Shown one piece after another: positions 42,369 through 62,331 of a DNA stretch of 64,000 nucleotides. Where the stretch lies: the NCBI GenBank assembly GCA_964350165.1, contig CAYGJA010000001.1:174545-238544 (forward strand). The letters run 5' to 3'. Within the stretch, counting starts at the first letter, position 1, and each line of letters opens with the position of its first letter. The position numbers and the translations under genes are program-made. Under the pieces are notes generated by a model, which saw only the letters and a program-made list of their open reading frames with translations, was not told where the DNA came from and did not search any database. The DNA comes from an uncultured Candidatus Saccharibacteria bacterium. Lineage in GTDB: Bacteria > Patescibacteriota > Minisyncoccia > Phycocordibacterales > UBA1006.

Positions 42369-42419
42369 TAATCCAACAAAAAAACCACTTTTTTTGAAGC
42401 GAAGTGGTTTTTTTGAAAA

Positions 42420-42866: not shown

Positions 42867-42910
42867 AATAATTCGTGCTAATTTAGGTGACTAATAAAAT
42901 TAGTATACCT

Positions 42911-44002
42911 CTAGTCAGCATCAAAAGAGATTCCTTGTAGCTTTTGCAGTGGATTAGGGCTCGGAACCGACGGATCACCATAGTCTATTTCTAGTTGACC
43001 AATCTTGGTCGCAACCTTGAGCGCTCTGGCGTGCAGGCGTTGGTTTCTTTTGCCGACACCCATCACTGCATATAGCATCGCTTCCTGTACCCAGTTTTCT
43101 TCTTTGTGAATTGTCTTTTGGATTACATCCAAATGACGCTCGAATTCTTTATCGGGGATATCCTGGGCTACTTTTGCCAAACGTTCTACTAGAATCCATC
43201 CCGTTCGACGAAAGAGAGGGTTATTTTCTCGTACCCAAGTGCGGATTTTTTCGGCACCATATACCGTATAAGGCAAAATCTCAGTGGCAATTTTGTCTGT
43301 AATATCCCAATAGTCAGCTTGACGAAGCCAAGTCTCTACTTGATGCTCTGTTACCTCGAGCGGATTTTCTATCATCGCCGCCAATACTTTGGCGTCATGT
43401 ATTCCTGTTTTCCACAAAGCTTTGGCCAGCACTCTATCACCATGATAAGGCTCGGCTATTTTTTGTAATTTATCTGGCGTGACGCCGTAGAATTTTTTGG
43501 CCGGATGACCCATGCGCGCCCAAATCTCCACCATCTGTGGATCATGAAGGCGTCGCAAATCAAACATTACCCGATCAATGGCCGCCATCGTTTTCTTTTC
43601 TTGCCCCAATTCATTAAGCAACACCTTGATCCTGCGTTCGATGTCTTTCATGCAATGCTCGATTGATACCGAGTCTCGTCTGTCTGGTGTTGCTATTTTC
43701 CACAACACAAAAGCATTTATGTAAGGATTATCTTTACGAAAAATAGAAGTAGGCACATCATCAGCCACCAAAACCACCAGGTCGTGTTTTTCAAGAACAT
43801 AGGTGCTCATGGCGGCCTGACTTGTTTTTAGACTTAGGCGATGCCCCCGAGCAACCTCCATAATCTCGGCTGGAGTCGGATGCCCACGAAAAAGACCAGC
43901 GCTCTGCGCATGCAACTGCTTGAGTTTGTTGTGTTTATTAAAATAGGCTTCAGCTAGTTTGCTGCGGATATTGTTGTATTTGGAGACAAACAGGATGTTC
44001 AT
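42911..44002 (-). CDS. fusion: low-molecular-weight phosphotyrosine phosphatase/ArsC-like domain (active-site Cys to Ser) + DNA alkylation repair (AlkD/AlkC-like HEAT) domain
   Basis: The N-terminus ILFVSKYNNIRSKLAEA aligns to the LMW-PTP P-loop VLFVCxGNICRSPxAEA with C12->S and C17->I. The DNPY general-acid region is retained. The C-terminal 220 aa match the DNA_alkylation family (ALWKTGIHDAKVLAAMI...YWDITDKIATEIL...RTGWILVERL). Confidence 0.7.
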   Translation of the reverse strand: MNILFVSKYNNIRSKLAEAYFNKHNKLKQLHAQSAGLFRGHPTPAEIMEVARGHRLSLKTSQAAMSTYVLEKHDLVVLVADDVPTSIFRKDNPYINAFVLWKIATPDRRDSVSIEHCMKDIERRIKVLLNELGQEKKTMAAIDRVMFDLRRLHDPQMVEIWARMGHPAKKFYGVTPDKLQKIAEPYHGDRVLAKALWKTGIHDAKVLAAMIENPLEVTEHQVETWLRQADYWDITDKIATEILPYTVYGAEKIRTWVRENNPLFRRTGWILVERLAKVAQDIPDKEFERHLDVIQKTIHKEENWVQEAMLYAVMGVGKRNQRLHARALKVATKIGQLEIDYGDPSVPSPNPLQKLQGISFDAD

Positions 44003-44095
44003 GAATTCGGCATTACAGAGACCGCTAGTATACAAAACACACACCCCTTGACGTCAAGACAAGAAGGGTGCTCGCACTCAGTATATACCAGTCGA

Positions 44096-44476
44096 CTACT
44101 TTTCGTCTTCGGGAGAAAAACCAAGACACACCGAATTGATACAGTATCGTTTCCCCGTTTCGGTTGGCCCATCAAGGAACACATGTCCCAAGTGCCCTCC
44201 ACAAGTAGCACAGACAACTTCGGTGCGGTGCATACCGTGGCCATCGTCTTCGACATATTTGACGGCCCCTGGCAGCGCCTCGTCAAAACTAGGCCAACCC
44301 GTACCTGACTCAAATTTTGTATCTGATGCAAAAAGTGCCGCGCCGCAATTCGCACAAGAAAATTTTCCGCTTCTTTTTTCCTTCAGATGTTCCCCAGTAA
44401 AAGGCACCTCTGTCCCCTTTTCGAACAAAACCTTCTTTTGTTCTTTAGTTAGTTTTTGGTTTTTGATGTCCATCAA
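44096..44476 (-). CDS. msrB: peptide methionine sulfoxide reductase MsrB
   Basis: CANCGAALF...GWPSF...CATCGGHLGHVF...RYCINS. These are the two CxxC pairs and catalytic motifs of MsrB (SelR). Confidence 0.92.
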   Translation of the reverse strand: MMDIKNQKLTKEQKKVLFEKGTEVPFTGEHLKEKRSGKFSCANCGAALFASDTKFESGTGWPSFDEALPGAVKYVEDDGHGMHRTEVVCATCGGHLGHVFLDGPTETGKRYCINSVCLGFSPEDEK

Positions 44477-46735: not shown

Positions 46736-47255
46736 AAAAACAACCGGGTTAGTATCCGGCCTCCTTCTTATATTATGCTATTTATTAAAACTTTTGTCAA
46801 ACAGATAGATTCAAGAACTGGCCTTAGATATCCTCGCTGGTTATTGCCGTTTCGGACACTTGTTCGTCGACAAAGAGAGCGACGGTGATAGGATTCGGCG
46901 GAGAGTAAGGGATTCGGTCAGGAGTCGTTATTTTCAAAAATCACTACGTGATTAAGAAAATATACGCTCACGACCCTAGCTTGCTCCCCAATGGTCGGCC
47001 TGCTGTCCTCGCATTGGGGCCCCGCTCCGCTTTTCGAATCCCTTATCTACTACAAACGAAAAGCTCCAACGCTACGCATTGGGACCTAACGTTTGTGGCG
47101 GGCTACCTCGGGCTGGAACCGTGGACAGTCAAGCCCAGTAAGGTTATTTTTTACTATTTCAGAATAACAAATCGAGGCGTCTCGAGCACACTATTTCGTG
47201 ACAAAAGTGACAGATTTAGGAATTAAAAGTTACACTATCCCGTAACATTATCGTT
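46736..47255. other. 520-bp structured intergenic region; candidate ncRNA and/or integration (att) site at the core/island junction; identity unresolved
   Basis: No plausible ORF. Several strong hairpins (ccccaatg...cattgggg at 46986-47019; GGGGCCCC). Plus strand has a GGATTCGGCGG motif repeated twice. Minus strand has GACUGUCCACGG resembling the RNase P RNA P2/P4 3' region. Neither a full tmRNA nor an RNase P fold could be built by eye. Confidence 0.3.
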
Positions 47256-47891
47256 TTAAAAACGACCTTCTAAACCCTTATCCGAGACCCGAGTAACTTC
47301 TATTGAACCGTGACGACCTCTGTCACGTGGATTACTATAGTAGTTACCCTTAAGAGTATTTCCCCCATCAAAAATACCAAGTACACATGTGCCATTATGA
47401 TCTCTCATGTCTTGATCATGATTCACAGTCGCTGTCCTATTTTGATATAAGTAGAAAATACTCCAATTTTTGTGTTCATTTACACCGACATCAGCAACAA
47501 TACTGTAGGATGAAGAATTTTTCGTATAAAGTGCCACGAATACATTTGTGAGAGTTTGCTTTATTTCAACCACAATCTCATATGTTTGAGATTCATTGTA
47601 ACTACTTACCAATAATCCCTCATACCGACCGTTAATATTTGGTATTTGAAATAGCCTAGAAAATAGAGGGTATTTCCATAGCCATCTATCGGTGAGCACA
47701 AAGAATGCAAACATAACAACCACTGTCGCTGGGGGTTCAATCAAGCCCATTCGTAACATGTCATCAACGGGAGGCATCAAAGTAATATTGTCTAAAATTC
47801 CTGATATAACCCTTGCTATCCAAAAAGAAGGTATCAAAGATCCTAGAAAGAACGTTATATAGAATTTGTATGTGAGTCGAAACGCTTTCAT
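47256..47891 (-). CDS. CBASS-type effector candidate: two N-terminal TM helices + about 130-aa soluble C-terminal domain (Cap15/2TM-beta or SLATT-like)
   Basis: TM1 FYITFFLGSLIPSFWIARVISGIL and TM2 PATVVVMFAFFVLTDRWLW, then a beta-rich C-terminal domain. It starts 5 bp after the nucleotidyltransferase gene on the same strand. Confidence 0.55.
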   Translation of the reverse strand: MKAFRLTYKFYITFFLGSLIPSFWIARVISGILDNITLMPPVDDMLRMGLIEPPATVVVMFAFFVLTDRWLWKYPLFSRLFQIPNINGRYEGLLVSSYNESQTYEIVVEIKQTLTNVFVALYTKNSSSYSIVADVGVNEHKNWSIFYLYQNRTATVNHDQDMRDHNGTCVLGIFDGGNTLKGNYYSNPRDRGRHGSIEVTRVSDKGLEGRF

Positions 47892-47895
47892 GCCA

Positions 47896-48777
47896 TTACA
47901 TGCCTAGAGCCAGACGCCATTTTTGCTCAGCCCCTGAAACAGTAGATGCATCATAAGCATCTAACGCATGATTCGAAGACTCGCGTAGCTGGTTGAAAAA
48001 GTTCTGCTGATTTATTATGCTCCATCCTTCAGTTATGTTTTCTACCCCGCAAACACTCGGAATGTCTCTGAATTGGCCTAGTTGTCGGTCCCATTTATCT
48101 AGTATGGCATTGCTCACCAAACAGAAAGTTCCAGCGTAATCATTGTAAAACTTGTCTGATGGCATTGCATAAACGAAGGCTTCCATTTTGAAAGACGAAA
48201 TGGTGTCAGAATCATGAAAGTGGTTTTTTACCCAATTTTTAAACATTCGGACTGTTGGCTTATAAGTGTCTTGTGTTGCTTGTTGTTTTACAACTCCGTT
48301 ATTGTAGTGAGTGCGAGGCATGTTCATTTTCTCAGTTCCTGTCCGCATTGAATAAACAGCAACAGGATCCGTCTTCGGATCATCTGAAATCTGCACCGCT
48401 GGTACTACATCTGCATTGAATGCTCCAGTAATTTTTATACATTTATCGCCACGTTCAATTGACCATTGGTAACGACGCTGGTTCCTAAGTTTCTGTTCGA
48501 TCTCTGAAAAAATACTGTCCCAAGAAATTGAGCCCGAGAAGCGACGTGGCGAATGTACTGAACTGTAAGTCGCTTTGCGGACTGCCACGACATCCACGTC
48601 GTTGATGTCAGAGATCGCCGTACTATTTTTATATGATCCTTGTAGGAAGGTATGATGAGTATCACCAAGCAATTCTTGAATATAGTTTTGAAGTGTGGCC
48701 ACTTGCGTTATTTTCGATGGCGACGGACTAGATGTCAGTGTGTCGATGAGGTGAGTTGGTATGTTGTGGCGTGCCAT
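47896..48777 (-). CDS. cGAS/DncV-like nucleotidyltransferase (CD-NTase, SMODS domain)
   Basis: Pol-beta NTase signature GSYKNSTAISDINDVDVVAV (GS...D.D) plus the downstream third acidic motif FNADVVPAV. 293 aa, typical of minimal SMODS CD-NTases. Confidence 0.7.
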   Translation of the reverse strand: MARHNIPTHLIDTLTSSPSPSKITQVATLQNYIQELLGDTHHTFLQGSYKNSTAISDINDVDVVAVRKATYSSVHSPRRFSGSISWDSIFSEIEQKLRNQRRYQWSIERGDKCIKITGAFNADVVPAVQISDDPKTDPVAVYSMRTGTEKMNMPRTHYNNGVVKQQATQDTYKPTVRMFKNWVKNHFHDSDTISSFKMEAFVYAMPSDKFYNDYAGTFCLVSNAILDKWDRQLGQFRDIPSVCGVENITEGWSIINQQNFFNQLRESSNHALDAYDASTVSGAEQKWRLALGM

Positions 48778-48788: not shown

Positions 48789-49445
48789 TTACTTCTTAAT
48801 CACATCAATTACTTTCCCGCTCACCTCAAAGTCATCTCCATATGCGATGAAAATTGGATGGTACTTTTCAGTTGAGTCTGCTTCTAAAACAAAGCGGTTA
48901 TGTACCACATCATTTCTAAAACGCTTGATCGTAGCAAGCCCATCAATTACAGCCACTACGATGTCTCTGTTCTTCGGTGTTTTATCTGCACTATCAACCA
49001 CAAGATAATCTCCATCCTCAATAGTAACTCCAGGCTTATTTGTAGGATCAACTTCGGCCTTATTCATAGACGGTCCATCTGCAACCAATACAAACAAATC
49101 TTTTTTACGATGAGGCAAGAGGCTGGTCGATACTTTGAGAAAACCCTCAACTCGCTCATCTGCAAATACAGTAGCGGGACCGCAATTAGCAGTACCGACA
49201 ATCGGTAGAGAAAACAATAGACGCGCTTTAGAGCTTACCGAATTGAAGCCTCGTTTGATTGGTTTGATAACATTATCCTCTAAATTCACTTGGAGAAGCC
49301 CTTTTTTATCTAGCTGAAGAAGATGATGCTTCACAATTTGAGGTTTGTTTTGTACCCCTACAAGTTTGGCCAAACTACGCAAACTCATTTGTCCCAGGTC
49401 ATGTTGACTTGCTAAATTTAATAGTTTTTCTTGTATTTGATGCAT
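48789..49445 (-). CDS. lexA: LexA/CI-like S24 autopeptidase repressor
   Basis: N-terminal LexA-type winged HTH (IQEKLLNLASQHDLGQMSLRSLAKLVGVQNKPQIVKHHLLQLDKKGLL). Ala-Gly-type cleavage region. C-terminal S24 domain with the Ser in ADGPSMN and the Lys in ATIKRF. Confidence 0.8.
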   Translation of the reverse strand: MHQIQEKLLNLASQHDLGQMSLRSLAKLVGVQNKPQIVKHHLLQLDKKGLLQVNLEDNVIKPIKRGFNSVSSKARLLFSLPIVGTANCGPATVFADERVEGFLKVSTSLLPHRKKDLFVLVADGPSMNKAEVDPTNKPGVTIEDGDYLVVDSADKTPKNRDIVVAVIDGLATIKRFRNDVVHNRFVLEADSTEKYHPIFIAYGDDFEVSGKVIDVIKK

Positions 49446-49570
49446 GGTTATATACTACCGTATATTTCTATATATGTCCACAATACTGTCAATTACCTTT
49501 ACACTCTTGACACCTGAAAACAAAGAGCATAAAATGGGAGTGGCTTAGTTCTTTCATTATCAGATTAACT
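49446..49570 (-). promoter_or_regulatory. putative promoter/operator of the lexA-like/CD-NTase/effector operon (divergent region)
   Basis: Minus-strand TTGACA-N17-TAGAAAT. The inverted repeat ATATAC-N4-GTATAT (49447-49462) lies between the -10 element and the start codon. Confidence 0.4.
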
Positions 49571-49729
49571 CTACTGACTATGGCTAAAAGCAATAAAAGT
49601 AAAGTCACCAGCCCCCGAGCAGCGCGTGCCGCCAGCAAAGTTCTACGAGATGGTCGGACTTCCCGATCATCCAAAACTGCTGCGGGAAGTGCTTTGTCTC
49701 AAAAGCCCGGACGACCCAAAAAGCGTAAA
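49571..49729 (+). CDS. small basic protein (52 aa), hypothetical
   Basis: ATG...TAA ORF MAKSNKSKVTSPRAARAASKVLRDGRTSRSSKTAAGSALSQKPGRPKKRK. It is absent from the ORF track (<60 aa) and divergent from the lexA-like gene. Confidence 0.3.
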
Positions 49730-49738
49730 TAAGATATT

Positions 49739-50071
49739 ATGGGAAACCTAAAGTACTACGATATTGTTTTGACTGACTTGAAGTTACATGTGCTTAAAGC
49801 TCGCAAACCAAAATCTTTCGGGTATCAGATGCACAGGTCACTGCGAACCGGAAAGCCTGGTCGAGCACGCAATCACGTTAACCAAATATCTGATGAACAA
49901 GACTCTGATTCTTTTGAGATATCTTTCCCTCTTGGAGAAGAAATCCTATCAGCACAACAAGAAGCTGCTAGACAAGGCAAAAAGTTACGAATTCTTTTTC
50001 CGAAAGACGGAATTCCTATCTTTGCTGGAGAAGATACTCAAGAGTATATCCTCAGCAAAAAGAAAAAATGA
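49739..50071 (+). CDS. hypothetical protein (mobile-element gene)
   Basis: 110-aa ORF. No motif. A 10-bp-stem hairpin plus T-run follows at 50170-50240. Confidence 0.4.
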   Translation: MGNLKYYDIVLTDLKLHVLKARKPKSFGYQMHRSLRTGKPGRARNHVNQISDEQDSDSFEISFPLGEEILSAQQEAARQGKKLRILFPKDGIPIFAGEDTQEYILSKKKK

Positions 50072-50258
50072 ATACACCTGTTAGCAAAACGTGTGGTATC
50101 ACGTATTTCGCAATCTAATTTGCGATAGAAGGTAGTCAATACTACCAGAGAGATCTCCATTGGTCTCGGTCATGCCCACTTTGCAAAGCAAACACCAGAA
50201 ATATTTCTGTTGTCTGTTTTGTGAAGTGGGCATTTTTATTTGTCTAAAAAGATAATTT

Positions 50259-51545
50259 ATGAACAAAAACAAAATCAAAATTGAATATATTCCTATTACT
50301 AAACTAAAAGCCTCTTCATACAATCCAAGAAAGATTGACCAAAAAAGTTTTGATCAACTTGTAGAAAGCATCAAGCACTTTGATTTGATCGATCCAATTA
50401 TTGTCAACGGATCACCCAATCGCAAAAATATAGTCATTGGTGGGCATATGCGTCTTCGTGCTGCAAAACACCTCGGTCGGGAAACAATGCCGGTTGTTTA
50501 TGTAAACATCTCTGACATAGAAGAGGAAAAAGAACTTAACATCAGACTCAATAAAAACACTGGAGATTGGGATTATGAATTACTCAAATCATTTGATCTC
50601 GACCTCCTTACTGATGTTGGTTTCGACAAAATAGACCTAGCCAGGTTTTGGGACGATGATACGAACGAGTCAAAAGATGATGAATTTAATGTCGAAAAAG
50701 AACAGAAAGAAATCAAAAAAACTGATATTGGGTTGGGTGATTTACTCATCATGGGCCAGCATAAACTTCTCTGCGCAGATGCCACTGATCCAAACGCTCT
50801 CAAAGCAGTATTCGGCAAAGACAAAGCGTCAATGATATACAGTGACCCAATCTATAACATCGGCCTGGATTACGACAAAGGCGTTGGTAACAAAGCAAGC
50901 TACGGTGGTACGGTTGACGATAACAAATCTGCCACGGAGTACAAATCATTTATCAAACAAACACTCGAAGCGGCATTATCTGTGTCAAACAAGAACACCC
51001 ATATCTTCTATTGGTGCGACGAAGCTTGGGTCTGGGTATTCCAGACCTTGTACAACGACCTTGGTATCAAAAATCGTAGACTTAACGTCTGGATAAAAAA
51101 CAACGCTTCGCCAACACCAACCGTAGCATTTAACAAGGTCACGGAGTTCTGTGTATATGGGACAAAAGGAAGTCCTTACCTGTCGCCACACATACGAAAT
51201 TGCACTGAAGTTGTGAATCCAGAATTAGGCACTGGTAATGATTTGCTCGAAGATATTCGCAATGTTTGGACAGAAAAACGTCTCAGAGCATCTGAATATG
51301 AACATGCAACTAGTAAGCCACCTCAATTACACGAAAAAGCAATCAAACGGTGTACAAAGCCTGGAGATATCATACTGGACTCCTTCTCTGGCTCAGCCAG
51401 CACTATGGTCGCTGCTGAAAAACTCAAACGACGAGTATATTCAACGGAGCTAGAACCCATCTTCTGTGAACTCGCGCGTCGCCGCTTCGAAAGTTTCACT
51501 GGTAAAAAAACAAAACTCATCAAAAAATTCTATGAAAAAGCATAA
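50259..51545 (+). CDS. ParB-like nuclease domain fused to beta-class N6-adenine/N4-cytosine DNA methyltransferase
   Basis: N-terminal ParB/Srx motif (IIVNGSPNRKNIVIGGHMRLRAAKHLG). MTase motif IV SDPIYNIG is followed later by motif I LDSFSGSAST (beta-class order IV then I). Confidence 0.8.
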   Translation: MNKNKIKIEYIPITKLKASSYNPRKIDQKSFDQLVESIKHFDLIDPIIVNGSPNRKNIVIGGHMRLRAAKHLGRETMPVVYVNISDIEEEKELNIRLNKNTGDWDYELLKSFDLDLLTDVGFDKIDLARFWDDDTNESKDDEFNVEKEQKEIKKTDIGLGDLLIMGQHKLLCADATDPNALKAVFGKDKASMIYSDPIYNIGLDYDKGVGNKASYGGTVDDNKSATEYKSFIKQTLEAALSVSNKNTHIFYWCDEAWVWVFQTLYNDLGIKNRRLNVWIKNNASPTPTVAFNKVTEFCVYGTKGSPYLSPHIRNCTEVVNPELGTGNDLLEDIRNVWTEKRLRASEYEHATSKPPQLHEKAIKRCTKPGDIILDSFSGSASTMVAAEKLKRRVYSTELEPIFCELARRRFESFTGKKTKLIKKFYEKA

Positions 51546-51939
51546 ATTCTCCCAAAAGTTCCTCGATGAGCTAAAGAAAGTACCAATAGTTCAGGTTGCC
51601 TGCGAAAAAACAGGATTGTCTCGCAACACTATCTACCGTTGGAAACGTGAAGATAAAAAGTTTGCTCAGGCATTTGACGAGGCACTATCTGATGGGATTT
51701 CATTCGTAAATGATATGAGTGAAAGTCAGTTACTACAACTAATCAAAGAGAAAAATTTTTCAGCTGTGCGCTTCTGGCTTAATAAGCGTCACCCTGCTTA
51801 CAAAGACAAACTAGAGGTGACACGATCTGGAAATATTGAAGAACTTACTCCAGAACAACAAGCTACTGTTCGCAAAGCACTGGAACTTGCCAAAATTATT
51901 CAACCTAAACAAGATATTCATGAAGAAAAATCACAATAA
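51532..51939 (+). CDS. putative terminase small subunit / HTH DNA-binding protein
   Basis: HTH VACEKTGLSRNTIYRWKRED. Size and position immediately upstream of the large terminase. Confidence 0.5.
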   Translation: MKKHKFSQKFLDELKKVPIVQVACEKTGLSRNTIYRWKREDKKFAQAFDEALSDGISFVNDMSESQLLQLIKEKNFSAVRFWLNKRHPAYKDKLEVTRSGNIEELTPEQQATVRKALELAKIIQPKQDIHEEKSQ

Positions 51940-53458
51940 CATTATTCCGGAAGATCTCTTCCAGACTCTCACCAAAGATAAAACTGTTCGTCGTGAAGTA
52001 ATGAAGAATAGTTTCAACTACTTTTTCCATTTTTACTTTCACCACTATGTAGAATTTGAAACCGCACCTTTCCAACACAATCTCATTTACAAATTGGAAA
52101 ATGAGCCAGATGAGAACATTTATGTCGTAGCATTCCGTGGTTCAGGAAAATCTACCATTGCTACAACGGCTTATCCAATTTGGTCAATCCTTGGGAAGCC
52201 TCAAAAGAAATTCATTATTATCTTCTGTCAAACACGCGCGCAAGCGAAGCAACATATGATGAACATCCGCAACGAACTAGAAAACAATCCTCTCCTCAAG
52301 AATGATCTCGGACCATTTAATGAAGAATCCGATGAATGGGGTTCTCATTCGCTTGTATTTTCAAATACACAGGCCCGTATCACTGTCGCTTCTTCTGAGC
52401 AGAGTATCCGAGGTTTGCGTCATCATCAGCACCGACCTGATTTATTTATCTGTGACGACGTCGAGGACGTACAATCAACTAAAACTCGAGAGGGGCGCAA
52501 CAAGACGTATCAATGGCTCACTGGCGACGTAATACCAGCTGGAGGAAAAAATACTCGATTAGTTGTAGTTGGTAACTTGCTCCATGAAGACTCGCTTCTC
52601 ATGCGTATTCGAGACCGTATCAATCAAAAAGAACTTGCTGGCACTTTCATGTCATGTGCAATTATGGACGACGATGGTAACTCTAATTAGACTGGCAAGT
52701 TTCCTAACCCTGAATCACTAGAAAAGGAACGTAAGAGGATTGGTGACGAAATTGCCTGGCAACGTGAGTATTTGCTGAATATCATTCCTGATGAGGATCA
52801 GGTAATTCATCTAGAATGGCTGCATTTCTACGACAATACCAAGTTGCCGCCAACAGAACATATCACCTTTAATGGCACCTATTCTGGGGTAGATTTGGCA
52901 ATTTCACTGAAAGATACAGCAGACAATACTGCTATTGTATCAGCTAATATTCATGGTCGGAATGAAAAGCTTCGCATATTTATACTGCCAAGCCTGATAA
53001 ATCAGAAAATAGACTTCCCTCAACAAGTTGAACTACTAAAGATGCATCGTGGAGCTGTTCTGAATAAACCCAATGATCGTCTTTTTGTTGAAAGTGTCGC
53101 ATACCAAGATGCATTACCTCAAATGCTTAATTCTCAAGGAGTTGATGCCGAAGCCGTCCGACCATTGAATGATAAGCGGACGCGACTAGCGCTAACCTCA
53201 ACCTCGATAAAGAACGGGAATATCCTTTTCCCGAAAACAGGATGTGAACAGCTTATTGAACAAATTGTGGGTTTTGGAGTAGAGAAACATGACGACTTAG
53301 CTGATGCTTTCTCTCTGCTTATCCACAAGATTGTTGAATTACACACTCAACAAGGAACCATTGCTTTTGCGATTATGGTTACTGGTAGTGACGATGATGC
53401 AGGTATTGTTTATCACAGTGACTATTATGATGTTCTAGACGATTATGATGTCAGCTGA
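51920..53458 (+). pseudogene. terminase large subunit interrupted by a single in-frame TAG at 52688-52690 (nonsense mutation or programmed readthrough)
   Basis: N-terminal ATPase with Walker A AFRGSGKST and Walker B LFICDDVED (51920..52687). After the TAG the same frame continues (TGKFPNPESLEKERKRIGDEIAWQREY...) into the RNase-H-like nuclease domain: GVDLA, ESVAYQD, HDDLADAF. Confidence 0.75.
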
Positions 53459-54028
53459 TTATCGATGTTTAATTGAGCCACCCAGTAAATTCTTGAATGA
53501 AACTTTACAGTTAGTAGCCGCTGGGTTGTCTGTGGTAAGTGTGGAAAATGGCGACGTTTGGTCAGGAAGAATGGGGTTGTATTCCAGAAGTGCTTCACTA
53601 GACTTCACAAACGTACCGTCTTCAGTGTAAATACTTCCAAGAACGGCAACATTTTCAAGAGGTTTTCCGCTAATATTCTTAACTTCACCATCAATATGGA
53701 AATAACCATATTCTTTGTAACAGTTAAAAGATAAAAGTTCGAGTTGATCTATATTTGATTCTTGTTGACGACTAGAGCTACTTGATTCACTTCTTGTGCT
53801 TGATGGTGATGGACTGGAGTCGTTGTCTCCTCCAAATATTGCTGTAAACATAACAATCATTCCAATTACAATGATTATCGTTGCTACAACATTTTGTGTT
53901 TTCTGCTTAGTTCCACAATAAGAGCACTTTCTTGCTTGTATAGGAATCTCTTTTAAACATTCGTGACACTTCTTGGTCGTGTTTGGATCGACTGGCTCAT
54001 TTGCTTTCGAGAGCTTAAATGACTTCAT
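53459..54028 (-). CDS. hypothetical membrane protein with N-terminal zinc-ribbon (CxxC...CxxC), one TM, Ser-rich linker and extracytoplasmic domain
   Basis: KKCHECLKEIPIQARKCSYCGTKQ, then TM IIIVIGMIVMFTAIFG, then SSPSPSSTRSESSSSS. Confidence 0.5.
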   Translation of the reverse strand: MKSFKLSKANEPVDPNTTKKCHECLKEIPIQARKCSYCGTKQKTQNVVATIIIVIGMIVMFTAIFGGDNDSSPSPSSTRSESSSSSRQQESNIDQLELLSFNCYKEYGYFHIDGEVKNISGKPLENVAVLGSIYTEDGTFVKSSEALLEYNPILPDQTSPFSTLTTDNPAATNCKVSFKNLLGGSIKHR

Positions 54029-54367: not shown

Positions 54368-55651
54368 ATGGAAAAAGAAGCAAAACTACGCTATTGCCTA
54401 TACGCCAGAAAAAGCACCGAGAGCGATGAACGCCAAGCTTTGTCAATTGAGTCTCAAGTGAAAGAGATGCTTCAAATTGCTGAAAAAGATGGACTAGATA
54501 TTGTCGATATTCGACGTGAAGCCAAGTCTGCTAAAGATTCTGGCAACAGGCCAGTGTTCAAAGAATTACTCAGTGATGTAAAACAAGAACGATTCAATGC
54601 GATTCTGACTTGGGCACCAGATCGGCTGTCTAGAAATGCTGGAGATCTTGGTTCAGTTGTTGATTTGATGGATGATAAGAAACTCTTGTCGATCCGGACA
54701 TATGGTCAAACATTTTCCAACTCACCCAACGAAAAGTTCTTGCTGATGATCCTGTGTTCGCAAGCGAAACTAGAAAACGATAACCGAGGTATTAACGTAA
54801 AACGAGGGCTCCGTACTAGATGTGAAATGGGACTGTGGCCCACTAATGCCCCTACGGGTTACGTCAAAGAAAAGCGCACTGACCGAAAGTGTCAATGCCT
54901 TCTGGATCCAGAGCGAGCGCCAGTAATTAAACAAATGTTTGAGAAGGTCGCATACGAAAAATGGTCAGGACGGAAGCTCTACCACTGGCTCAAGTTTGAT
55001 TTGAACTTCAGGACTGGCAAAGGCAAGAAACATCTCAGCCTCGGTAACATTTACCGCATCCTCGAAAACACCTTTTACTACGGCGAATTTGAATATCCAC
55101 GAAAGTCTGGTAATTGGTACCAAGGAAAACACGAACCAATCATTACCAAAGAACTATTTGACCTGGTTCAAGAACAAGTTAAAAACTCCCAACTGGTTCG
55201 CAAAGAAAACATCGAGTTTGCTTTTACCAAAATCATGAAATGTGGACTTTGCGGATCTGGTATATCCGCCACCGAGAAGTTCAAAAGGCTCAAAGCTGGC
55301 GGGTACAATCGCCATGTCTACTACGGTTGCACCAAGGCAAGAGATAAGCATTGCAAATGCGGCTATATCAATGAGACTGACCTGATAAAACAACTTCAAC
55401 AGCTCACTGGCCAACTCGATCTCAAGAAGACTCCAATGCAGAGCAAGATCAGGTCAGAAATCCGAAGATTCAAGAAGTTCCAAAGGATGGTCACTGGAAA
55501 AAGTGACAATATTGAAGTTACTGATATTGATGTACAGAATTATGCGAAGTTTATTTTGAAAGAAGGTTCAAATGAAGAAAAGCGAGACATTATAAAACAC
55601 CTCAAGGGATTTCTACTTCTCAAAGAAAAAGAATTATCCATTGAAACATAA
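54368..55651 (+). CDS. large serine recombinase (resolvase-family catalytic domain + recombinase domain + zinc ribbon)
   Basis: YCLYARKSTESDERQALSIESQ (catalytic Ser) and DRLSRN match the resolvase N-terminal domain. 427 aa. The C-terminal Cys cluster CGLCGS...CTKARDKHC is a zinc-ribbon typical of large serine integrases. Confidence 0.85.
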   Translation: MEKEAKLRYCLYARKSTESDERQALSIESQVKEMLQIAEKDGLDIVDIRREAKSAKDSGNRPVFKELLSDVKQERFNAILTWAPDRLSRNAGDLGSVVDLMDDKKLLSIRTYGQTFSNSPNEKFLLMILCSQAKLENDNRGINVKRGLRTRCEMGLWPTNAPTGYVKEKRTDRKCQCLLDPERAPVIKQMFEKVAYEKWSGRKLYHWLKFDLNFRTGKGKKHLSLGNIYRILENTFYYGEFEYPRKSGNWYQGKHEPIITKELFDLVQEQVKNSQLVRKENIEFAFTKIMKCGLCGSGISATEKFKRLKAGGYNRHVYYGCTKARDKHCKCGYINETDLIKQLQQLTGQLDLKKTPMQSKIRSEIRRFKKFQRMVTGKSDNIEVTDIDVQNYAKFILKEGSNEEKRDIIKHLKGFLLLKEKELSIET

Positions 55652-55692
55652 GTAATTTACTTGTACCCCCAAGGGGTATATAATACTTTCGT

Positions 55693-55962
55693 ATGAAAAG
55701 TGACAAATCAGCGAAGCTGGTGATACGCCTAAAGAAGATCGAAGGGCAAGTTCGCGGACTACAGAGAATGGTTGCCGATGATACTTATTGTATTGATGTA
55801 ATTACACAATCCTCTGCTATTCGCCATGCATTATCTTCGTTTGAAGACAAGCTCCTTGAACAACATCTTTCATCCTGCGTTGTACACCAAATCAAGGAAG
55901 GAAAAGAAAGCCAGGCGATTGATGAAGTTTTGGCGGTCCTCAAAAAAGCCAAGAAAAGATAA
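55693..55962 (+). CDS. csoR: CsoR/RcnR-family metal-sensing transcriptional repressor (Cu-sensing C-H-C type)
   Basis: LKKIEGQVRGLQRMV..DTYCIDVITQ...HLSSC carries the CsoR ligand set: Cys in YCIDV and H-x3-C. Confidence 0.85.
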   Translation: MKSDKSAKLVIRLKKIEGQVRGLQRMVADDTYCIDVITQSSAIRHALSSFEDKLLEQHLSSCVVHQIKEGKESQAIDEVLAVLKKAKKR

Positions 55963-56429: not shown

Positions 56430-57305
56430 ATGAAAAATACAACTATTATTGGCCTTCTCGCGCTTGTAGTGATCTTGGGTGCAGTCTTCCTAATACGGAA
56501 AGGACCTTCTCAGCAGACAATAACACAGGAACAAAATACAGATGAGGATGGTCATCATGATGATGACAAGGTTGCATCATATGAGATCTATCCAGGGGAT
56601 GTTGCCAAGAAAATAGAAAACCAAGAAGACTTTATTTTGTTGGATGTTCGTACTCCACAAGAGTACGAAGAAGTCCACCTGGAAAACGTCCTACTACTTC
56701 CGGTGGAAGAATTGTCACAGCAAACACTAAATGTTATCGGACTTGGACAGGATAAGAAAGACCAAGAAATTATTATTTATTGTCGCAGCGGTGCTCGGAG
56801 CAAAATTGCATATGACGTAATGAAGTCATTGGGCTACACCAATATCACAAGTGTGGCGGGTGGCATGGTTCACTGGCAAGAAGACAATTATCCATTTACT
56901 GAATCTGGTTCATATCAAGGACCAAGTTGGTCAAATAAAACATCGATGACCGAGAAAGTTGAGTCCACTGTCGGGCCTACAATAACCATTGAAAATGATT
57001 TCCATGACTTTGGCGTTATCTCACAGTATGGAGGTGTCGTGACCAAAGATTTCACAATAGTGAACTCTGGTTTAGGAACGCTTGAGATTGGGACACTGAC
57101 GACGAGTTGTAGCTGTACCTCAGCAGAAATGTCTCGCTCATCAATCCCAGAGGGCGGATCAGCTACCCTTACGGTCACCTTTGACCCTGATTTCCACGCT
57201 GAACCAGGTAGCGTATTCAAACGCACCGTCTTTATCCCAACGAATGACCCAAATACTCCCGAAGCTGAAGTGGTCATTCAAGTAGATATTGATGAAGGTA
57301 ATTAA
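56430..57305 (+). CDS. membrane-anchored rhodanese (sulfurtransferase) domain fused to DUF1573 Ig-like domain
   Basis: N-terminal TM. Rhodanese active-site loop IIIYCRSGARS with flanking LLDVRTPQEYEEVH. C-terminal DUF1573-like FHDFGVISQYGGVV...TSCSCTS. Confidence 0.7.
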   Translation: MKNTTIIGLLALVVILGAVFLIRKGPSQQTITQEQNTDEDGHHDDDKVASYEIYPGDVAKKIENQEDFILLDVRTPQEYEEVHLENVLLLPVEELSQQTLNVIGLGQDKKDQEIIIYCRSGARSKIAYDVMKSLGYTNITSVAGGMVHWQEDNYPFTESGSYQGPSWSNKTSMTEKVESTVGPTITIENDFHDFGVISQYGGVVTKDFTIVNSGLGTLEIGTLTTSCSCTSAEMSRSSIPEGGSATLTVTFDPDFHAEPGSVFKRTVFIPTNDPNTPEAEVVIQVDIDEGN

Positions 57306-57328
57306 TTAACGTAACTAATTTTAAATTT

Positions 57329-57820
57329 ATGAACAAAGTAACAATAATTTCAATTATAGGTGCAGTGGTTGTTATTGGAGGAGCGATTGCTTTTTCTGCG
57401 TCAACCAATCCTAGTTCTACAAGCCTATCCAAATCTGCTGAGGTCACTGTAGCCTCAGAGATTACTGTTGATCGGGAGATACATGACTTTGGCGAGATCG
57501 ACATCTTTGGAGGCAAAGTTCAATCAGACTTTACCCTCACCAATACAGGCACGGAAGATGTAACCATTACTGCTGCAACAACCAGTTGCGGTTGTACCGA
57601 AGGAGTGGTTGGAGGGGAAAATTTTGGTATGCACTCGAAGCTCACTGCTGAAGTCACTATACCAGTTGGAGAAACCGAAACGCTTACAGCAATCTATGAC
57701 CCACTTGCTCATGGTCCGAATGGTACAGGTCAGATTACTCGACAGCTCTTCCTGAAAACCAATTCAAGAACAACACCAGAAATAGAAGTACGCATCTCTG
57801 CTGATGTATACAAAGATTAA
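57329..57820 (+). CDS. DUF1573-family protein (paralog of the C-terminal domain of the preceding gene), N-terminal TM
   Basis: IHDFGEIDIFGGKVQSDFTLTNTG...TSCGCTEG parallels FHDFGVISQYGGVVTKDFTIVNSG...TSCSCTSA in the preceding gene. Confidence 0.65.
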   Translation: MNKVTIISIIGAVVVIGGAIAFSASTNPSSTSLSKSAEVTVASEITVDREIHDFGEIDIFGGKVQSDFTLTNTGTEDVTITAATTSCGCTEGVVGGENFGMHSKLTAEVTIPVGETETLTAIYDPLAHGPNGTGQITRQLFLKTNSRTTPEIEVRISADVYKD

Positions 57821-57822
57821 CC

Positions 57823-58353
57823 ATGAACAAGAAAGCTATCATTACCGTCTTTGTATTCATAAGTGTGTTGATCCCTAGGGCTACGATGGCTCACTGTCCT
57901 CTGTGTACAGCAGGGGCAGGAGCTTTGGCGCTCATCGCAGCATCGCTTGGGGTACCAGGTCTGATTGTGGCGACCTTTGTAGGAGGATTTGCCTTGGCAA
58001 TGGGGATGTGGATCGCAAGAATGATCAAAAAGAAGTACTTTCCAGGGCAAGATCAGGCTGTTACTCTGGCGACGTATCTGCTCACTATTATTCCACTCTG
58101 GCCAGTACTGGTAGATTACAAGGCACTCTATATTCCAGCACTTGGAATTGACAAATATGCTGAAACGATTCCCGTAAACATCTACCTCGTTGGTTCTCTC
58201 CTTGGTGGACTGATCTTGTTCGGATCACCATATCTGAGCAAGTGGGTTTCAAAAACAGCTGGGAAACAATTATTTCCATTCCAAGGCATTGTGATCACGC
58301 TGATATTGCTAGGGTTGTTGCCATTACTCGTTGATAAGTTCTTCCTGACATGA
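57823..58353 (+). CDS. hypothetical polytopic membrane protein with N-terminal H-C-P-L-C motif
   Basis: MAHCPLCTAGAG... followed by 4-5 TM segments. The CxxC sits near the periplasmic face. Confidence 0.45.
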   Translation: MNKKAIITVFVFISVLIPRATMAHCPLCTAGAGALALIAASLGVPGLIVATFVGGFALAMGMWIARMIKKKYFPGQDQAVTLATYLLTIIPLWPVLVDYKALYIPALGIDKYAETIPVNIYLVGSLLGGLILFGSPYLSKWVSKTAGKQLFPFQGIVITLILLGLLPLLVDKFFLT

Positions 58354-58781
58354 TGTATGCAGTAGTGACAATTGTCGGTTCCTTTGTGGTTGGCATACTA
58401 TTGCGCCAGCGATTCACATCACTGTGTGCCATCTGCTTTGCGGTCAGCATTACGTGGATTGTTGGGCTGGTGCTGTTTTTGATCCCAGAGATGGACGGTT
58501 ATGTTGATCCGCTTGCTTTAGGAATTCTCATGGGAGGAAGTGCGATTGGAGGACTGTACTACCTAGGACCACGCACAAAAGAGGAGCTTCATGTATTCAA
58601 GTTGCCTTATGCCATCACTGCCTTCTTTGTTGCCCACTCTGTTATTACAAAAGACTTAGACGTGCGGTTACTCGCTATAATCACTGGGATATGGATTGTA
58701 TTTCTCATTCTGTATGGGACAAGAAATACATCTGCAAAGTCTTGGTTTAACAAAATAGTTGCTTGTTGCAGAGATTGGTAG
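58350..58781 (+). CDS. hypothetical membrane protein
   Basis: 143 aa, 4 TM. Overlaps the previous gene by 4 nt (ATGA). Confidence 0.4.
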   Translation: MMYAVVTIVGSFVVGILLRQRFTSLCAICFAVSITWIVGLVLFLIPEMDGYVDPLALGILMGGSAIGGLYYLGPRTKEELHVFKLPYAITAFFVAHSVITKDLDVRLLAIITGIWIVFLILYGTRNTSAKSWFNKIVACCRDW

Positions 58782-58784
58782 CTA

Positions 58785-60902
58785 TTGGGTCTTTATTCGC
58801 TAGTTAAAAACTGTATGGATCATAGTAAACACGCAGAACATAAAAAAGATACATCTGGGCATGATTGTTGCCATGATGAATCTCCTCAACAAAAAACTCA
58901 TCGTACTCATGAAATGCCTCATGATGGTGCGAGTTGCCATAGTGATAGTGGTAGCCATGGTGCACCTGGCATGAGTCATGGTAGTGCCAAAGATTTCCTG
59001 AAACGATTTTGGACTGTTACGGGACTTCTTGTTCCAATGGTTCTGCTTCATCCTGGAATCTTAGAGTTTCTTGGATTTGAAGTATTTCCAGCTACCAAAT
59101 GGATTCAATTTGGTTTGGCTGTTGTAATCTTCAGATTTGCTCTTGTCTTCTTTGAACATGCTTGGCATGAAATAAAAATGCGTCGCTATGGAATGATGAC
59201 GCTCGTCTCCATGGCTGTTGGTGCAGGATTTCTGTTTTCGGTGGCATCAACTTTCATTCCAGCTTTGGAAGCAGAATTCTACATTGAAATTTCATCGCTG
59301 GTTTGGGTTTTGTTGTTCGGTCATTATCTAGAGGCGCGATCCAGTAGTGCGGCTGGTAATGCCCTTCAAGAAGTGGCGAAATTACTCCCCAAGAAAGCGC
59401 ACAAGATAGTAGATGGTAAAGAGGTTGATGTAGATATTACTGAATTAAACCAAGGAGATACGGTCGTAGTAAAACCTGGCGAAAAAGTCCCTGCTGATGG
59501 AACAGTGATATCTGGGGGTGCAAATGTGAATGAATCATTGGTGTCGGGTGAATCAAAACCAATTAACAAATCATCAAAGAGTGAAGTTGTAGCGGGATCA
59601 ATTTGTTTGGATGGCTCACTTACAGTCGAGCTGAGCCGTGTCGGTGAAAACTCAACTGTAGGTCAGATCAAGAAGCTGATCGAACAAGCTGGTAAAACTA
59701 AGCCACGTTCACAGCGTATTGCAGACAAAGCTTCGGCAGTACTGACATTTGTTGCTGGAACGGTTGCGTTGCTTACGCTCCTGATCTGGACACTGGTTAT
59801 TGGGCAAACGTTTGTCTTCGCGATTACCTTGGCCATTACCGTGCTGGTTATTGCCTGTCCACATGCCCTCGGCCTGGCTATCCCAACTGTTACAACCATT
59901 ACCACATCGCTGGCGGTGAAAAACGGCTTCTTTATCAAAGACCTTAGTAAAATAGAAGTCATCCGCAAAGCTGATTATGTCGTTTTCGACAAAACTGGAA
60001 CTTTGACCAAAGGAGAATTTGGAGTAACCGAAATCGTAGCTTCTGGCAATGCGGATGAAGAGAAAGCACTCTCGGTTGCAGCTTCATTGGAACAGCATTC
60101 ATCCCACATCATTGGGCGCTCAATTCTCGAGTATACCAAGAAGAAAAACTCGGAATTGTCAGATATATCTGATTTCAAAAACATCGCTGGCCAAGGAGTG
60201 TCAGCAAAGATTGCTGATACAGAATACTTTGTAGGTAATGAAAGGTTAATTAAAACTCTGGGTTTCGATTTCAAATCACCTCAGGATCTATCAGGAACGG
60301 TTGTTTTCGTCGCAAGCACAAGTGAATTGCTAGGTTATATTGTGCTCGCTGATGCAGTCAAAGATCAATCATACAAAGCGGTCAAAGACTTGCATAAGAT
60401 GGGTGTAAAAGTAGCGATGCTGACGGGTGATAACGAAAAAGTTGCCAAGTCTGTATCTGATGAATTGGGTATTGATACGTATTTTGCTAATGTTATGCCC
60501 GAGGATAAATATACCCATATCAGAGGCCTTCAAGACGGCGGTAATGTGGTGCTGATGGTTGGCGATGGTGTCAACGATGCGCCAGCACTAACTCAGGCGG
60601 ATGCAGGAATTGCGATTGGTGCGGGTACTGATGTAGCAGTCGAGTCGGGGGATGTAGTATTGATGGATAATGACCCATCTGATATTGCACGACTGATTAC
60701 ACTGTCGAAAAAGGTCTATACCAAAATGATTCAGAACCTCATTTGGGCACTGGGATATAACATCATCGCTATTCCCGCGGCGGCAGGAGTATTTGCTGGA
60801 CTTGGATTCTTCCTGCGTCCTGAAATTGGGGCGCTATTGATGAGCCTCTCGACGGTGATTGTAGTAGCAAATGCAATGAGATTAAAAAGAATCAAATTAT
60901 GA
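58785..60902 (+). CDS. copB: copper-transporting P1B-type ATPase, CopB-like (CPH motif, His-rich N-terminus, no HMA domain)
   Basis: DKTGTLT phosphorylation site. TM6 motif IACPHALGLA (CPH). GDGVNDAPAL hinge. The N-terminal 70 aa are rich in His/Cys (HSKHAEHKKDTSGHDCCHDE...SHGAPGMSHGS). An alternative start is Met at 58815. Confidence 0.9.
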   Translation: MGLYSLVKNCMDHSKHAEHKKDTSGHDCCHDESPQQKTHRTHEMPHDGASCHSDSGSHGAPGMSHGSAKDFLKRFWTVTGLLVPMVLLHPGILEFLGFEVFPATKWIQFGLAVVIFRFALVFFEHAWHEIKMRRYGMMTLVSMAVGAGFLFSVASTFIPALEAEFYIEISSLVWVLLFGHYLEARSSSAAGNALQEVAKLLPKKAHKIVDGKEVDVDITELNQGDTVVVKPGEKVPADGTVISGGANVNESLVSGESKPINKSSKSEVVAGSICLDGSLTVELSRVGENSTVGQIKKLIEQAGKTKPRSQRIADKASAVLTFVAGTVALLTLLIWTLVIGQTFVFAITLAITVLVIACPHALGLAIPTVTTITTSLAVKNGFFIKDLSKIEVIRKADYVVFDKTGTLTKGEFGVTEIVASGNADEEKALSVAASLEQHSSHIIGRSILEYTKKKNSELSDISDFKNIAGQGVSAKIADTEYFVGNERLIKTLGFDFKSPQDLSGTVVFVASTSELLGYIVLADAVKDQSYKAVKDLHKMGVKVAMLTGDNEKVAKSVSDELGIDTYFANVMPEDKYTHIRGLQDGGNVVLMVGDGVNDAPALTQADAGIAIGAGTDVAVESGDVVLMDNDPSDIARLITLSKKVYTKMIQNLIWALGYNIIAIPAAAGVFAGLGFFLRPEIGALLMSLSTVIVVANAMRLKRIKL

Positions 60903-62320
60903 AAAATCAGAACATGAACATTCGCATAGGTCTGGTTTTTGTTGCTGTAGTTGTTCTGGGTATTCTTGTGATATCAAATAACGATAAGACTGTTTCGAAA
61001 TTCTCTCTGCCAGACAAACAAGCTCTTGCAGAAGAGTTTAATGATGCTTTCAGAGAGAACAAAGAGCCAAATGGAACTATCATCGAGTACGCGATAACAG
61101 CAGAGCCGGCATCAATTGAACTTCCAAGTGGAACAATTACCAATGCTTGGGCATATAACGGCCGCACTCCTAGTCCTGAAATCCGTCTGACGCTTGGTGA
61201 TACTCTTCGCATTCCATTTACCAATAATCTTCCAGACGAAACCACCATTCACTTTCACGGTATACGAGTTCCTAATGCGATGGATGGCGTGCCAGGCGTC
61301 ACTCAAAATCCTATTCAACCGGGCGAATCCTTCGTCTATGAGTTCACTCCAAAAGATGCTGGAACATTTTGGTTTCATCCACATGTCCGAGGTTCAGAAC
61401 AGCTTGAACGAGGACTCTACGGAACTATTATCGTTGAAGACAAGTACACCCAATCTCTCGATCAGGATTACGTTATCATTCTGGATGATTGGCGACTTTC
61501 ATCTGCTACTACAATCAATGAGACTTTCAACCACCCTCATGATATCGCTCACGATGGACGGTGGGGTGATATTACGGTCAATAATAAAGTCTCAGAGATT
61601 ATTACAGCGAGACCAGGCGAACATATCAGATTGCGATTCGTGAATACTGCTAATGGCAGAGTCTTTCAGCCTGTCTTTTCTCAGCCTGTACAGCTAGTGG
61701 CCGTAGACGGGATGTCTTTGGCAGAACCAATCCCATACGAGACGATGGAAGTTGCTCCGGGAAATCGTATCGACGTCGAGTTTATTGCTGAGAGCGATTT
61801 CAGTGTTGTCGACACCTTTTTTGGCAGACTCAACATGCTTCTTAATGTAGAAGTTTCTGGCGAAAAAGTGACTTCAACTATAATCGACTACCCCAAAAGC
61901 ATTCACATTCCAGCTTGGAATTCAGCCGAGGCTATCTCTGCTAAACCAGATATCGAATATGTACTCGACGCCGATGGTGGAGGCATGATGGGGATGATGG
62001 CCTTCAACTGGAGTATCAACGATGATTTGTACAGAGAAGACACGCCACTATCCCTTACTCGCGAAGAAGTATCTAAGATTCGATTTCGCAATGACTCACT
62101 TCGCTTCCACCCTATGCATCTTCATGGTCAATTCTTCAAGGTTATTGCTCGGGACGGAAACCCTGTTGATGAGCCATATTGGCGAGATACCATCCTGGTA
62201 CATGGAGTTGAAACCATCGACGTAATGCTTATGCCACGAGATGTCGGTGAATGGGCCATGCATTGCCATATTCAAGAACATGCTGAAGCTGGCATGATGA
62301 CTACTTTAATTGTTAACTAA
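60899..62320 (+). CDS. multicopper oxidase (CueO/laccase-like)
   Basis: Four copper-ligand motifs: HFHGIRVPNAMDG, WFHPHV, HPMHLHG, HCHIQEHAEAGMM. The start overlaps the copB stop (ATGA). Confidence 0.88.
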   Translation: MKNQNMNIRIGLVFVAVVVLGILVISNNDKTVSKFSLPDKQALAEEFNDAFRENKEPNGTIIEYAITAEPASIELPSGTITNAWAYNGRTPSPEIRLTLGDTLRIPFTNNLPDETTIHFHGIRVPNAMDGVPGVTQNPIQPGESFVYEFTPKDAGTFWFHPHVRGSEQLERGLYGTIIVEDKYTQSLDQDYVIILDDWRLSSATTINETFNHPHDIAHDGRWGDITVNNKVSEIITARPGEHIRLRFVNTANGRVFQPVFSQPVQLVAVDGMSLAEPIPYETMEVAPGNRIDVEFIAESDFSVVDTFFGRLNMLLNVEVSGEKVTSTIIDYPKSIHIPAWNSAEAISAKPDIEYVLDADGGGMMGMMAFNWSINDDLYREDTPLSLTREEVSKIRFRNDSLRFHPMHLHGQFFKVIARDGNPVDEPYWRDTILVHGVETIDVMLMPRDVGEWAMHCHIQEHAEAGMMTTLIVN

Positions 62321-62331
62321 TCAGATCTTAT

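Follow-up and report, generated by a model that had tools for sequence, protein, structure and literature searches.

What does an in-frame TAG codon mean when it stands in the middle of an otherwise well-preserved gene for a large terminase subunit (TerL): an error in the sequence, a codon that is read through, or the loss of the enzyme? The question is raised by a stretch of 64,000 nucleotides from contig CAYGJA010000001.1 of an uncultured Candidatus Saccharibacteria bacterium (hereinafter the window), where such a gene lies at 51920–53458 on the plus strand. It is part of an integrated mobile element of ~8.5 kb, which occupies roughly 47.2–55.7 kb of the window and is flanked by housekeeping and copper-resistance genes. 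The host belongs to the Patescibacteria (candidate phyla radiation, CPR), its DnaE being 62–65% identical to named Pacebacteria and Nomurabacteria proteins. We propose with high confidence that the TAG is genuine and arose by a nonsense mutation of one base, which converted the TGG codon of Trp257 to a stop in the large terminase of this element.

A stop codon at the domain boundary of TerL

Translated in one frame, the gene comprises 512 codons, with TAG at 52688–52690 as the sole internal stop (...DDDGNSN*TGKFPNPESLEK...) and a terminal TGA at 53456–53458. This agrees with the original prediction, made from the sequence letters, that a single in-frame TAG separates the ATPase and nuclease domains and that no frameshift follows it. 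The open reading frame (ORF) given there as 51836..52690 does exist; it is a TTG-extended version of the gene, whose true start by homology is ATG 51920. The 256 codons ahead of the premature TAG (51920..52690, plus strand) encode the ATPase domain and match positions 256–463 of phrog_38 (E = 1.2e-43). They are collinear with the 255 residues after it (52691..53458, plus strand), which match positions 494–714 of the same family (E = 2.2e-25) and comprise the linker helix and the RNase-H-like nuclease, in the same frame but no longer translated from the TerL start. This C-terminal half also scores above the Pfam Terminase_6C threshold (24.5 bits vs a cut-off of 22.6).

As the prediction had further held, the motifs are intact on both sides of the stop. 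The Walker A (AFRGSGKST, residues 71–79) and Walker B (LFICDDVED, residues 175–183) motifs precede it, are invariant in the family and align to the same motifs of the T7-type TerL structures 8dgc/4bij in the PDB, while the invariant acidic residues of the nuclease domain, namely D325 (GVDLA), E391 (FVESV) and D458/D459/D462 (HDDLAD), follow it. Modeled with AlphaFold (pLDDT confidence score 73.7), the read-through protein gives full-length Foldseek matches to the PhiV-1, D6E, HK97 and Sf6 terminases (E = 5e-15 to 3e-9), as well as matches to the G20c and human cytomegalovirus nuclease domains; in this model residue 257 lies in the loop between the last strand of the ATPase domain and the linker helix (264–286). 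The family as a whole has over 3700 database homologues, typically of ~500 aa, the closest being 77% identical. The protein shares with phage TerL (T7 gp19/PhiV-1, D6E, HK97, Sf6; phrog_38) an N-terminal ASCE ATPase domain, a C-terminal RNase-H-like nuclease domain and an overlapping gene for the small subunit (TerS) immediately upstream. Unlike in those phages, however, a nonsense codon stands here at the domain boundary, so that the two domains do not lie on one uninterrupted chain in this copy (TAG at codon 257); the gene is also carried by an element without portal or capsid genes and belongs to a family almost confined to Patescibacteria chromosomes.

Comparison with the orthologous TerL genes, as the prediction had advised, identifies what the codon was. 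The residue aligned to the stop is Trp in 120 of 120 homologous proteins, and the aligned codon is TGG in all 92 other loci that were fetched; P0125, a protein in the same 90%-identity cluster as the truncated N-terminal fragment, likewise reads ...GKSNWPGKF over the site. Accordingly, one G→A transition turned TGG into TAG. A one-base departure from the family consensus is also what an error would resemble, and the source is a metagenome-assembled genome (MAG), so the alternative that the true sequence is TGG and the TAG a sequencing or assembly artefact has to be weighed. Against it, the same base is present in the Logan assemblies of two different runs, ERR3534985 (a 17.9-kb contig, 100% identical to the window over 6771 bases) and ERR3535002 (a 5.1-kb contig, 100% identical over 5087 bases). 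The allele is also that of the 377-kb contig of the source MAG, the exact 256-aa truncated product is recorded on four contigs, and no homopolymer flanks the stop. Because two runs' assemblies and four contigs share the allele, a one-off assembly error is very unlikely, and we allow artefacts in general only a small chance. A search for both the ancestral TGG allele and further TAG copies, by a 39-mer carrying R at the variable position, gave 0 matches in the JGI metagenomes and IMG/VR.

Termination at the TAG and the age of the lesion

TAG is an ordinary terminator both in this host and in the element family. It ends 20 of the 57 ORFs of the window (~35%), among them rpoC, the product of which aligns to position 1144 of 1147 in NCBIfam TIGR02386, and dnaE, which at 1080 aa compares with 1053–1093 aa in relatives. 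Genome-wide reassignment of TAG was rejected in view of this stop usage together with the full-length products of these two TAG-ended genes. In the element family, 56 of 322 core genes stop at TAG; for TerL the figure is 37 of 86. Across the related loci, of which the 80 best-scoring ones were used, 84 of 85 TerL genes have no internal stop. The exception (L078, 8001–9499) has three in-frame stops at codons 425–430, probably due to a frameshift near the 3′ end; inactivation of TerL therefore occasionally happens elsewhere in the family. The window holds no tRNA genes and no match to an Rfam family, and no tRNA with the anticodon CUA occurs in 60 related loci. Given this routine use of TAG as a terminator in host and family, the lack of a CUA tRNA in the window and these loci, and the uninterrupted TerL of 84 of 85 relatives, we conclude that the TAG terminates translation of TerL. 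The protein is thereby truncated past its ATPase domain, so that neither the linker helix nor the nuclease domain is made, and this copy of the element would be unable to cut or package DNA by its own enzyme.

The original prediction had also offered an amber codon that is read through, as in phages that recode TAG in late genes. Phages with recoded stop codons, in which TAG or TGA is reassigned in late genes, reportedly exist, and the present case resembles them in placing an in-frame TAG in a late, structural-module gene. Read-through could be programmed or conditional, via a suppressor tRNA supplied, for example, by a TAG-recoded helper phage, such that full-length TerL is made only during helper infection. 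The perfectly kept downstream frame with all its catalytic residues is compatible with this, as is the observation that the nine genes carried by this copy stop at TAA or TGA, never at TAG. However, whereas recoding entails multiple in-frame TAGs at sense positions and avoidance of TAG as a terminator, this element has a single such codon, and both the host and the family freely use TAG to end their genes, TerL included. An in-frame TAG is absent from TerL in all 85 relatives, and a search for tRNA(CUA), as advised by the prediction, gave none in the window or in 60 related loci. Moreover, the stop stands at an invariant Trp, while known TAG recoding inserts Gln, which would be a substitution at a site conserved in 120 of 120 proteins. 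We hence regard read-through of any kind as exceedingly improbable, and likewise hold it very unlikely that TerL expression depends, through the amber codon, on a helper phage that carries a suppressor.

Two other candidates for a recoded or corrected codon were examined and rejected. A scan of the other genes for in-frame TAGs, also suggested by the prediction, uncovered none at sense positions: the four pairs of long ORFs that share a frame across a TAG (at 19064, 58779, 15725 and 8032) are unrelated neighboring genes, coding for a hypothetical protein and DnaE, a membrane protein and CopA, RNase III and SMC, and a KH protein and TrmD. A-to-I editing of the mRNA would turn UAG into UIG, which is read as Trp, but the site reads UUAGA, unlike the UACG loop motif needed by TadA, to our knowledge the only A-to-I editor of bacteria.

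A further alternative is a functional split terminase, in which the ATPase and nuclease cooperate as two polypeptides, the second being produced by re-initiation. Gene callers do predict a 228-aa ORF from TTG 52772, and the motifs of both domains are kept. This TTG, 28 codons downstream, is the first in-frame start past the stop and lies within the invariant WQREYLL motif, for which reason re-initiation cannot rescue TerL: starting there drops residues 258–283, which include most of the predicted linker helix. The relatives also speak against a split enzyme, as 84 of 85 carry TerL as a single ORF and the remaining one is broken elsewhere (codons 425–430). Further, we know of no studied phage in which separated TerL domains reconstitute packaging. 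Taken with these points, the split enzyme has scarcely any probability left.

With termination at the TAG as the favored reading, the state of the rest of the gene bears on when the mutation arose. In columns at least 97% conserved among 120 intact homologues, the TerL of the window deviates at 2 of 122 positions before the stop and 1 of 80 after it, the downstream half thus keeping 79 of 80 near-invariant residues; the deviation rates of both halves are within the range of intact homologues. The ratio of nonsynonymous to synonymous differences per site (pN/pS) to the nearest relatives is ~0.07 for the N-terminal and ~0.2 for the C-terminal half. There are no further stops or frameshifts in the gene, and the other core genes of the element are full length, with the same lengths as in relatives. 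Because the gene and the element are otherwise undamaged, we read the lesion as probably recent. Dating it by the ratio of nonsynonymous to synonymous substitution rates did not resolve the terminal branch, since synonymous sites are saturated against every available relative.

These data bear out the part of the original prediction that spoke of a recent nonsense mutation, in that an invariant Trp is replaced through a single G→A change and the downstream half is free of further lesions; the accumulating frameshifts and stops that it had named as the sign of plain pseudogenization are absent there. The same prediction had coupled the mutation to a domesticated remnant, which is not supported. 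The absence of capsid, tail and lysis genes beside the terminase is indeed what long-term pseudogenization in a decaying cryptic prophage might leave behind. Yet a cryptic prophage is expected to show idiosyncratic loss, with several disrupted genes and a pattern not shared across lineages, whereas here there is a single lesion in this copy, and the capsid-less gene order is native to a family detected in 481 genomes, being kept with intact genes in ~80 loci of diverse CPR lineages, even at 38–47% TerL identity. A decaying remnant is accordingly a most improbable explanation.

Certain points weigh against the interpretation of the TAG as a recent loss-of-function mutation. The term "recent" depends solely on the absence of further damage, given the saturation of synonymous sites. 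The choice of the best-scoring loci biases the fraction of intact TerL genes (84/85) upward. The search of the host genome for a suppressor tRNA covered 64 kb. Finally, as the allele is seen in assemblies, a minority TGG allele might be present in the population.

We also observed that the TerL gene is a mosaic. Its ATPase half is 90% identical to that of the related locus L001 and 68–69% identical to those of L014 and L016 (pN 0.063 vs 0.21), whereas its nuclease half is 65% identical to L001 and 71–72% to L014 and L016 (pN 0.23 vs 0.18). As the two halves differ in their nearest relatives, this pattern would imply that element lineages have recombined at a point near the domain boundary, not far from the TAG.

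The terminase island and its relatives

The variable cargo at the left of the element consists of two genes of a cyclic-oligonucleotide-based antiphage signaling system (CBASS) on the minus strand: a Cap15-like effector with two transmembrane (2TM) helices (47256..47891; Pfam Cap15_CD_rec, 1e-24; PADLOC 2TM effector, 2.6e-43) and a CD-NTase of the SMODS family (47896..48777; Pfam SMODS; PADLOC oligonucleotide cyclase, 6.8e-30). This pair also lies upstream of the repressor gene in ~12 related loci. The repressor itself, an S24-peptidase protein of the LexA/CI type (48789..49445, minus strand; Pfam Peptidase_S24, 3.2e-16), is a core gene that is syntenic in relatives. Divergent from it is the best sigma-70-like promoter match in the element (49507..49535, plus strand), TTGACA-17-TAAAAT, which agrees with the consensus at 11 of 12 positions and is a candidate by consensus match only. 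It is followed on the plus strand by orf50 (49580–49732), which codes for a basic protein of 50 aa, and by orf110 (49739..50071), a conserved core gene found in the same position in ~40 loci (26–37% identity by tblastn), for which no Pfam or PADLOC match was obtained.

Directly upstream of the packaging operon lies a long terminator-like hairpin with a U-tract (50172..50233, plus strand), with 31-nt arms and a perfect center, then UUUUUAUUU, 26 nt upstream of the start of the ParB-methylase gene. Its RNA has a minimum free energy of -48 kcal/mol (z = -8.5). Of 79 relatives, 57 have a similar hairpin (≤ -25 kcal/mol), in 51 of them with a T-rich tail, often TTTTTCTATATC-like. Possible roles are those of a terminator or a target of antitermination, or alternatively of a palindrome recognized by a protein or as a packaging (pac) site. 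Its recurrence ahead of the operon points to packaging genes that are shielded from early transcription and await a specific signal.

The operon begins with a core gene for a ParB_N-domain DNA methyltransferase (50259..51545, plus strand; Pfam ParB_N, 9.9e-13, and N6_N4_Mtase, 6.6e-29), which is found directly upstream of TerS in all loci. TerS (51532..51939, plus strand; phrog_4044 TerS, 3.2e-12) is a 135-aa protein, called at the same length in the contigs from the two Logan runs (L006 and L007), the gene for which overlaps both its neighbors, the TerL start by 20 nt; TerS recurs in every related locus, at 49–82% identity. Neither TerS nor TerL matches a known defense-system member in PADLOC. 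The slot past TerL holds a Zn-ribbon membrane protein on the minus strand (53459..54028; phrog_14275, 3.4e-12; phrog_8545 'Sie-like', 7.9e-7), possibly a superinfection-exclusion protein judging from these profile matches. The element closes with a large serine recombinase, the integrase (54368..55651, plus strand; Pfam Resolvase, Recombinase and Zn_ribbon_recom; phrog_95 integrase, 4.7e-62), a core gene that follows TerL in nearly all loci. Genes for capsid, portal, tail, lysis or replication functions were not recognized in the element with Pfam, PHROGs and PADLOC.

For the borders of the element, the only candidate found is a weak one, an imperfect direct repeat of 22 nt at 47194..47215, with its partner at 55687–55708 (18 of 22 positions identical, 8493 bp apart); no tRNA or Rfam RNA is situated there. 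The repeat brackets exactly the genes from Cap15 to the serine recombinase. It could mark the ends of the element or could have arisen by chance; the attachment (att) sites of serine integrases are short. An empty integration site was not recovered: the 82-kb contig of a related strain (L095; Logan ERR3534989), which has an AddA-like helicase in the same 90% cluster, ends at the equivalent of ~44.4 kb of the window, ~3 kb before the element. Compared with window positions 40386–44476, this strain lacks the dihydroorotate dehydrogenase gene of 41166–42368, which suggests that the region is strain-variable. On the other side, copper and heavy-metal resistance genes are located just past the recombinase in the window (56430–63066) and in the related loci L001 (16107–21557) and L004 (14691–20762), coding for rhodanese-DUF1573 proteins, a multicopper oxidase, a P-type ATPase, DsbA-like proteins and cation efflux proteins. 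This shared flank could represent a common integration neighborhood or a larger composite island.

Relatives of TerL were detected in 481 genomes in a scan of one genome per species, almost all of them CPR and with complete chromosomes included. The backbone of the 80 best loci is essentially invariant, with the S24 repressor gene followed by orf110, the ParB-methyltransferase, TerS, TerL, a variable slot and the serine recombinase. Copies with an intact TerL, for example those of L001 and L004, occur in run ERR3534985 as well, one of the two runs whose assemblies contain the TAG allele. Even distant relatives (TerL identities of 47% and 38%) keep the ParB-methyltransferase, TerS and TerL core along with restriction or nuclease cargo, and one of them (L092) also keeps the serine recombinase. 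The presence of two divergent copies at different sites in several MAGs, for instance CAZWYM01 (L010/L041) and CAZIZK01 (L033/L057), speaks for mobility of the family. Its slots are the variable part. The one between TerL and the integrase is bimodal: 38 of 70 loci leave it empty (<140 bp), and in the other 32 it measures 0.8–7.9 kb and contains reverse transcriptases of diversity-generating retroelements (DGRs; RVT_1 in five cases, with bAvd in three), Ltp exclusion lipoproteins, SNase nucleases, methylases, restriction subunits, Shedu and KAP NTPases (e.g., in L019, L036, L049 and L088). The slot to the left of the S24 gene holds CBASS, ThsB-TIR, or a type I restriction–modification (R-M) system with an OLD-family nuclease. 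The 77 cargo ORFs examined in relatives include no member of a structural or lysis family.

Seven relatives of TerL were retrieved from IMG/VR, including contigs of 22–33 kb. No helper phage with a close TerL was found among them, and the two that were examined (L092 and L094) are capsid-less, with R-M and nuclease cargo. Terminal overlaps suggestive of circular or excised forms were present in 0 of 16 short related contigs. We found no description of this CPR element in the open-access full-text literature.

Two observations on related loci lie outside this backbone. In L004, a second large serine recombinase beside a rolling-circle Rep-like gene (REP_ORF2-G2P) at 2301–4440, immediately left of the CBASS-like cargo, is possibly another small mobile element in tandem. 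ARAGORN also reports a tRNA-Ser with the anticodon ACT, with A at position 34, which is unusual for bacteria, in L025 (16881–16970), L033 (17255–17342) and L061 (11551–11640), the last adjoining a tRNA-Ser(GCT).

Relation to phage satellites and significance

The gene content invites comparison with phage satellites. Integrases of phage-inducible chromosomal islands (PICI) typically belong to the tyrosine type, unlike the large serine recombinase of this element. In other respects the element resembles PICI and the pathogenicity islands of Staphylococcus aureus (SaPI), being a small integrated island (~7–15 kb) with an integrase, a repressor, its own TerS, and accessory and defense cargo at fixed hot spots, in the absence of tail and lysis genes. 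The core set of PICI given by de Sousa et al. 2023 (PMC10085698) comprises an integrase, an alpA/merR/stl regulator, a primase-replicase and the small terminase, and over 99.9% of the PICI detected there are from Proteobacteria or Firmicutes. The present element has an integrase (54368–55651) and a small terminase without tail or lysis genes. However, its regulator is of the S24 LexA/CI type rather than AlpA, MerR or Stl (the only trace of AlpA being a marginal Phage_AlpA match in TerS, without a significant stretch), and its hosts are CPR bacteria. No primase-replicase domain was recognized in any ORF of 47.2–55.7 kb with Pfam, PHROGs and PADLOC, orf110 being unannotated. Capsid-forming PICI (cfPICI) are defined in the same work by their own capsid, portal, protease and head–tail adaptor/connector genes along with terL; the element shares terL with these, but the capsid, portal, protease and adaptor genes were found neither in it nor in the cargo of its relatives. 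Hence, by these core sets the element is neither a PICI, for want of an AlpA/MerR/Stl regulator and a recognized primase-replicase and on account of its serine integrase, nor a cfPICI, for want of capsid, portal or adaptor genes in spite of its terL.

A different parallel is provided by P4-like satellites and P2 prophages, which carry defense hot spots (Rousset et al. 2022, PMC9122126). These likewise combine a conserved mobile backbone with variable slots for anti-phage systems, which in our family comprise CBASS, ThsB-TIR, type I R-M, an OLD-family nuclease, GmrSD, Shedu and Ltp. However, the backbone genes of our element are unrelated to theirs, and the capsid-size factors Psu, Sid or Delta are not present in it.

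Going by this gene content, the family may act as a phage satellite, with its own terminase loading the element into the procapsids of a helper phage. The S24 repressor, which appears to be of the SOS-responsive type, and the serine integrase would control residence. The repressor gene is divergent from a short early operon (orf50 and orf110), behind which the strong terminator-like hairpin precedes the overlapping ParB-methylase–TerS–TerL operon. The element's own TerS and TerL would recognize and package its DNA, while capsids and tails would come from the helper. Thus, the remark in the original prediction that some satellites depend on helper functions seems apt for the element as a whole, insofar as the satellite reading itself holds. 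Weighing against that reading, a helper phage, an excised form, an att site and a packaged copy were not found in the data searched, and no replication module was recognized. We infer that the element is satellite-like and that this copy lacks its own packaging enzyme. The latter might be viewed as a "grounded" island, whose CBASS and membrane-protein cargo may still be expressed and which the integrase could still excise, but which as a TerL-null copy would no longer drive its own packaging.

More speculatively, the locus could be a natural knock-out in a maybe undescribed, Patescibacteria-specific class of phage-satellite-like elements. In this scenario, which we hold to be possible though doubtful, islands of ~7–15 kb, the sole virion-related genes of which are ParB-methylase–TerS–TerL behind a hairpin, would ferry defense systems, DGRs and exclusion proteins in helper capsids, and the copy with the TAG would be an immobilized defense island.

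The TAG itself is real but an ordinary Trp-to-amber knock-out, for which no new biology is needed. The TerL gene of this copy should accordingly be annotated as a pseudogene and not be read as a sign that CPR bacteria or their mobile elements use an alternative genetic code. The value of the broken gene lies in its pointing to a highly conserved capsid-less "terminase island", which is of greater interest than the mutation. Should these islands prove to be satellites that depend on helpers, they would bring the CPR into the range of phage satellites, would represent a hijacking strategy between those of PICI and cfPICI, with their own TerS and TerL but no capsid, and would help explain the movement of defense systems and DGRs among ultra-small bacteria. 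A natural TerL-null copy beside intact copies in the same samples also offers a ready comparison for the need of TerL in mobilization.

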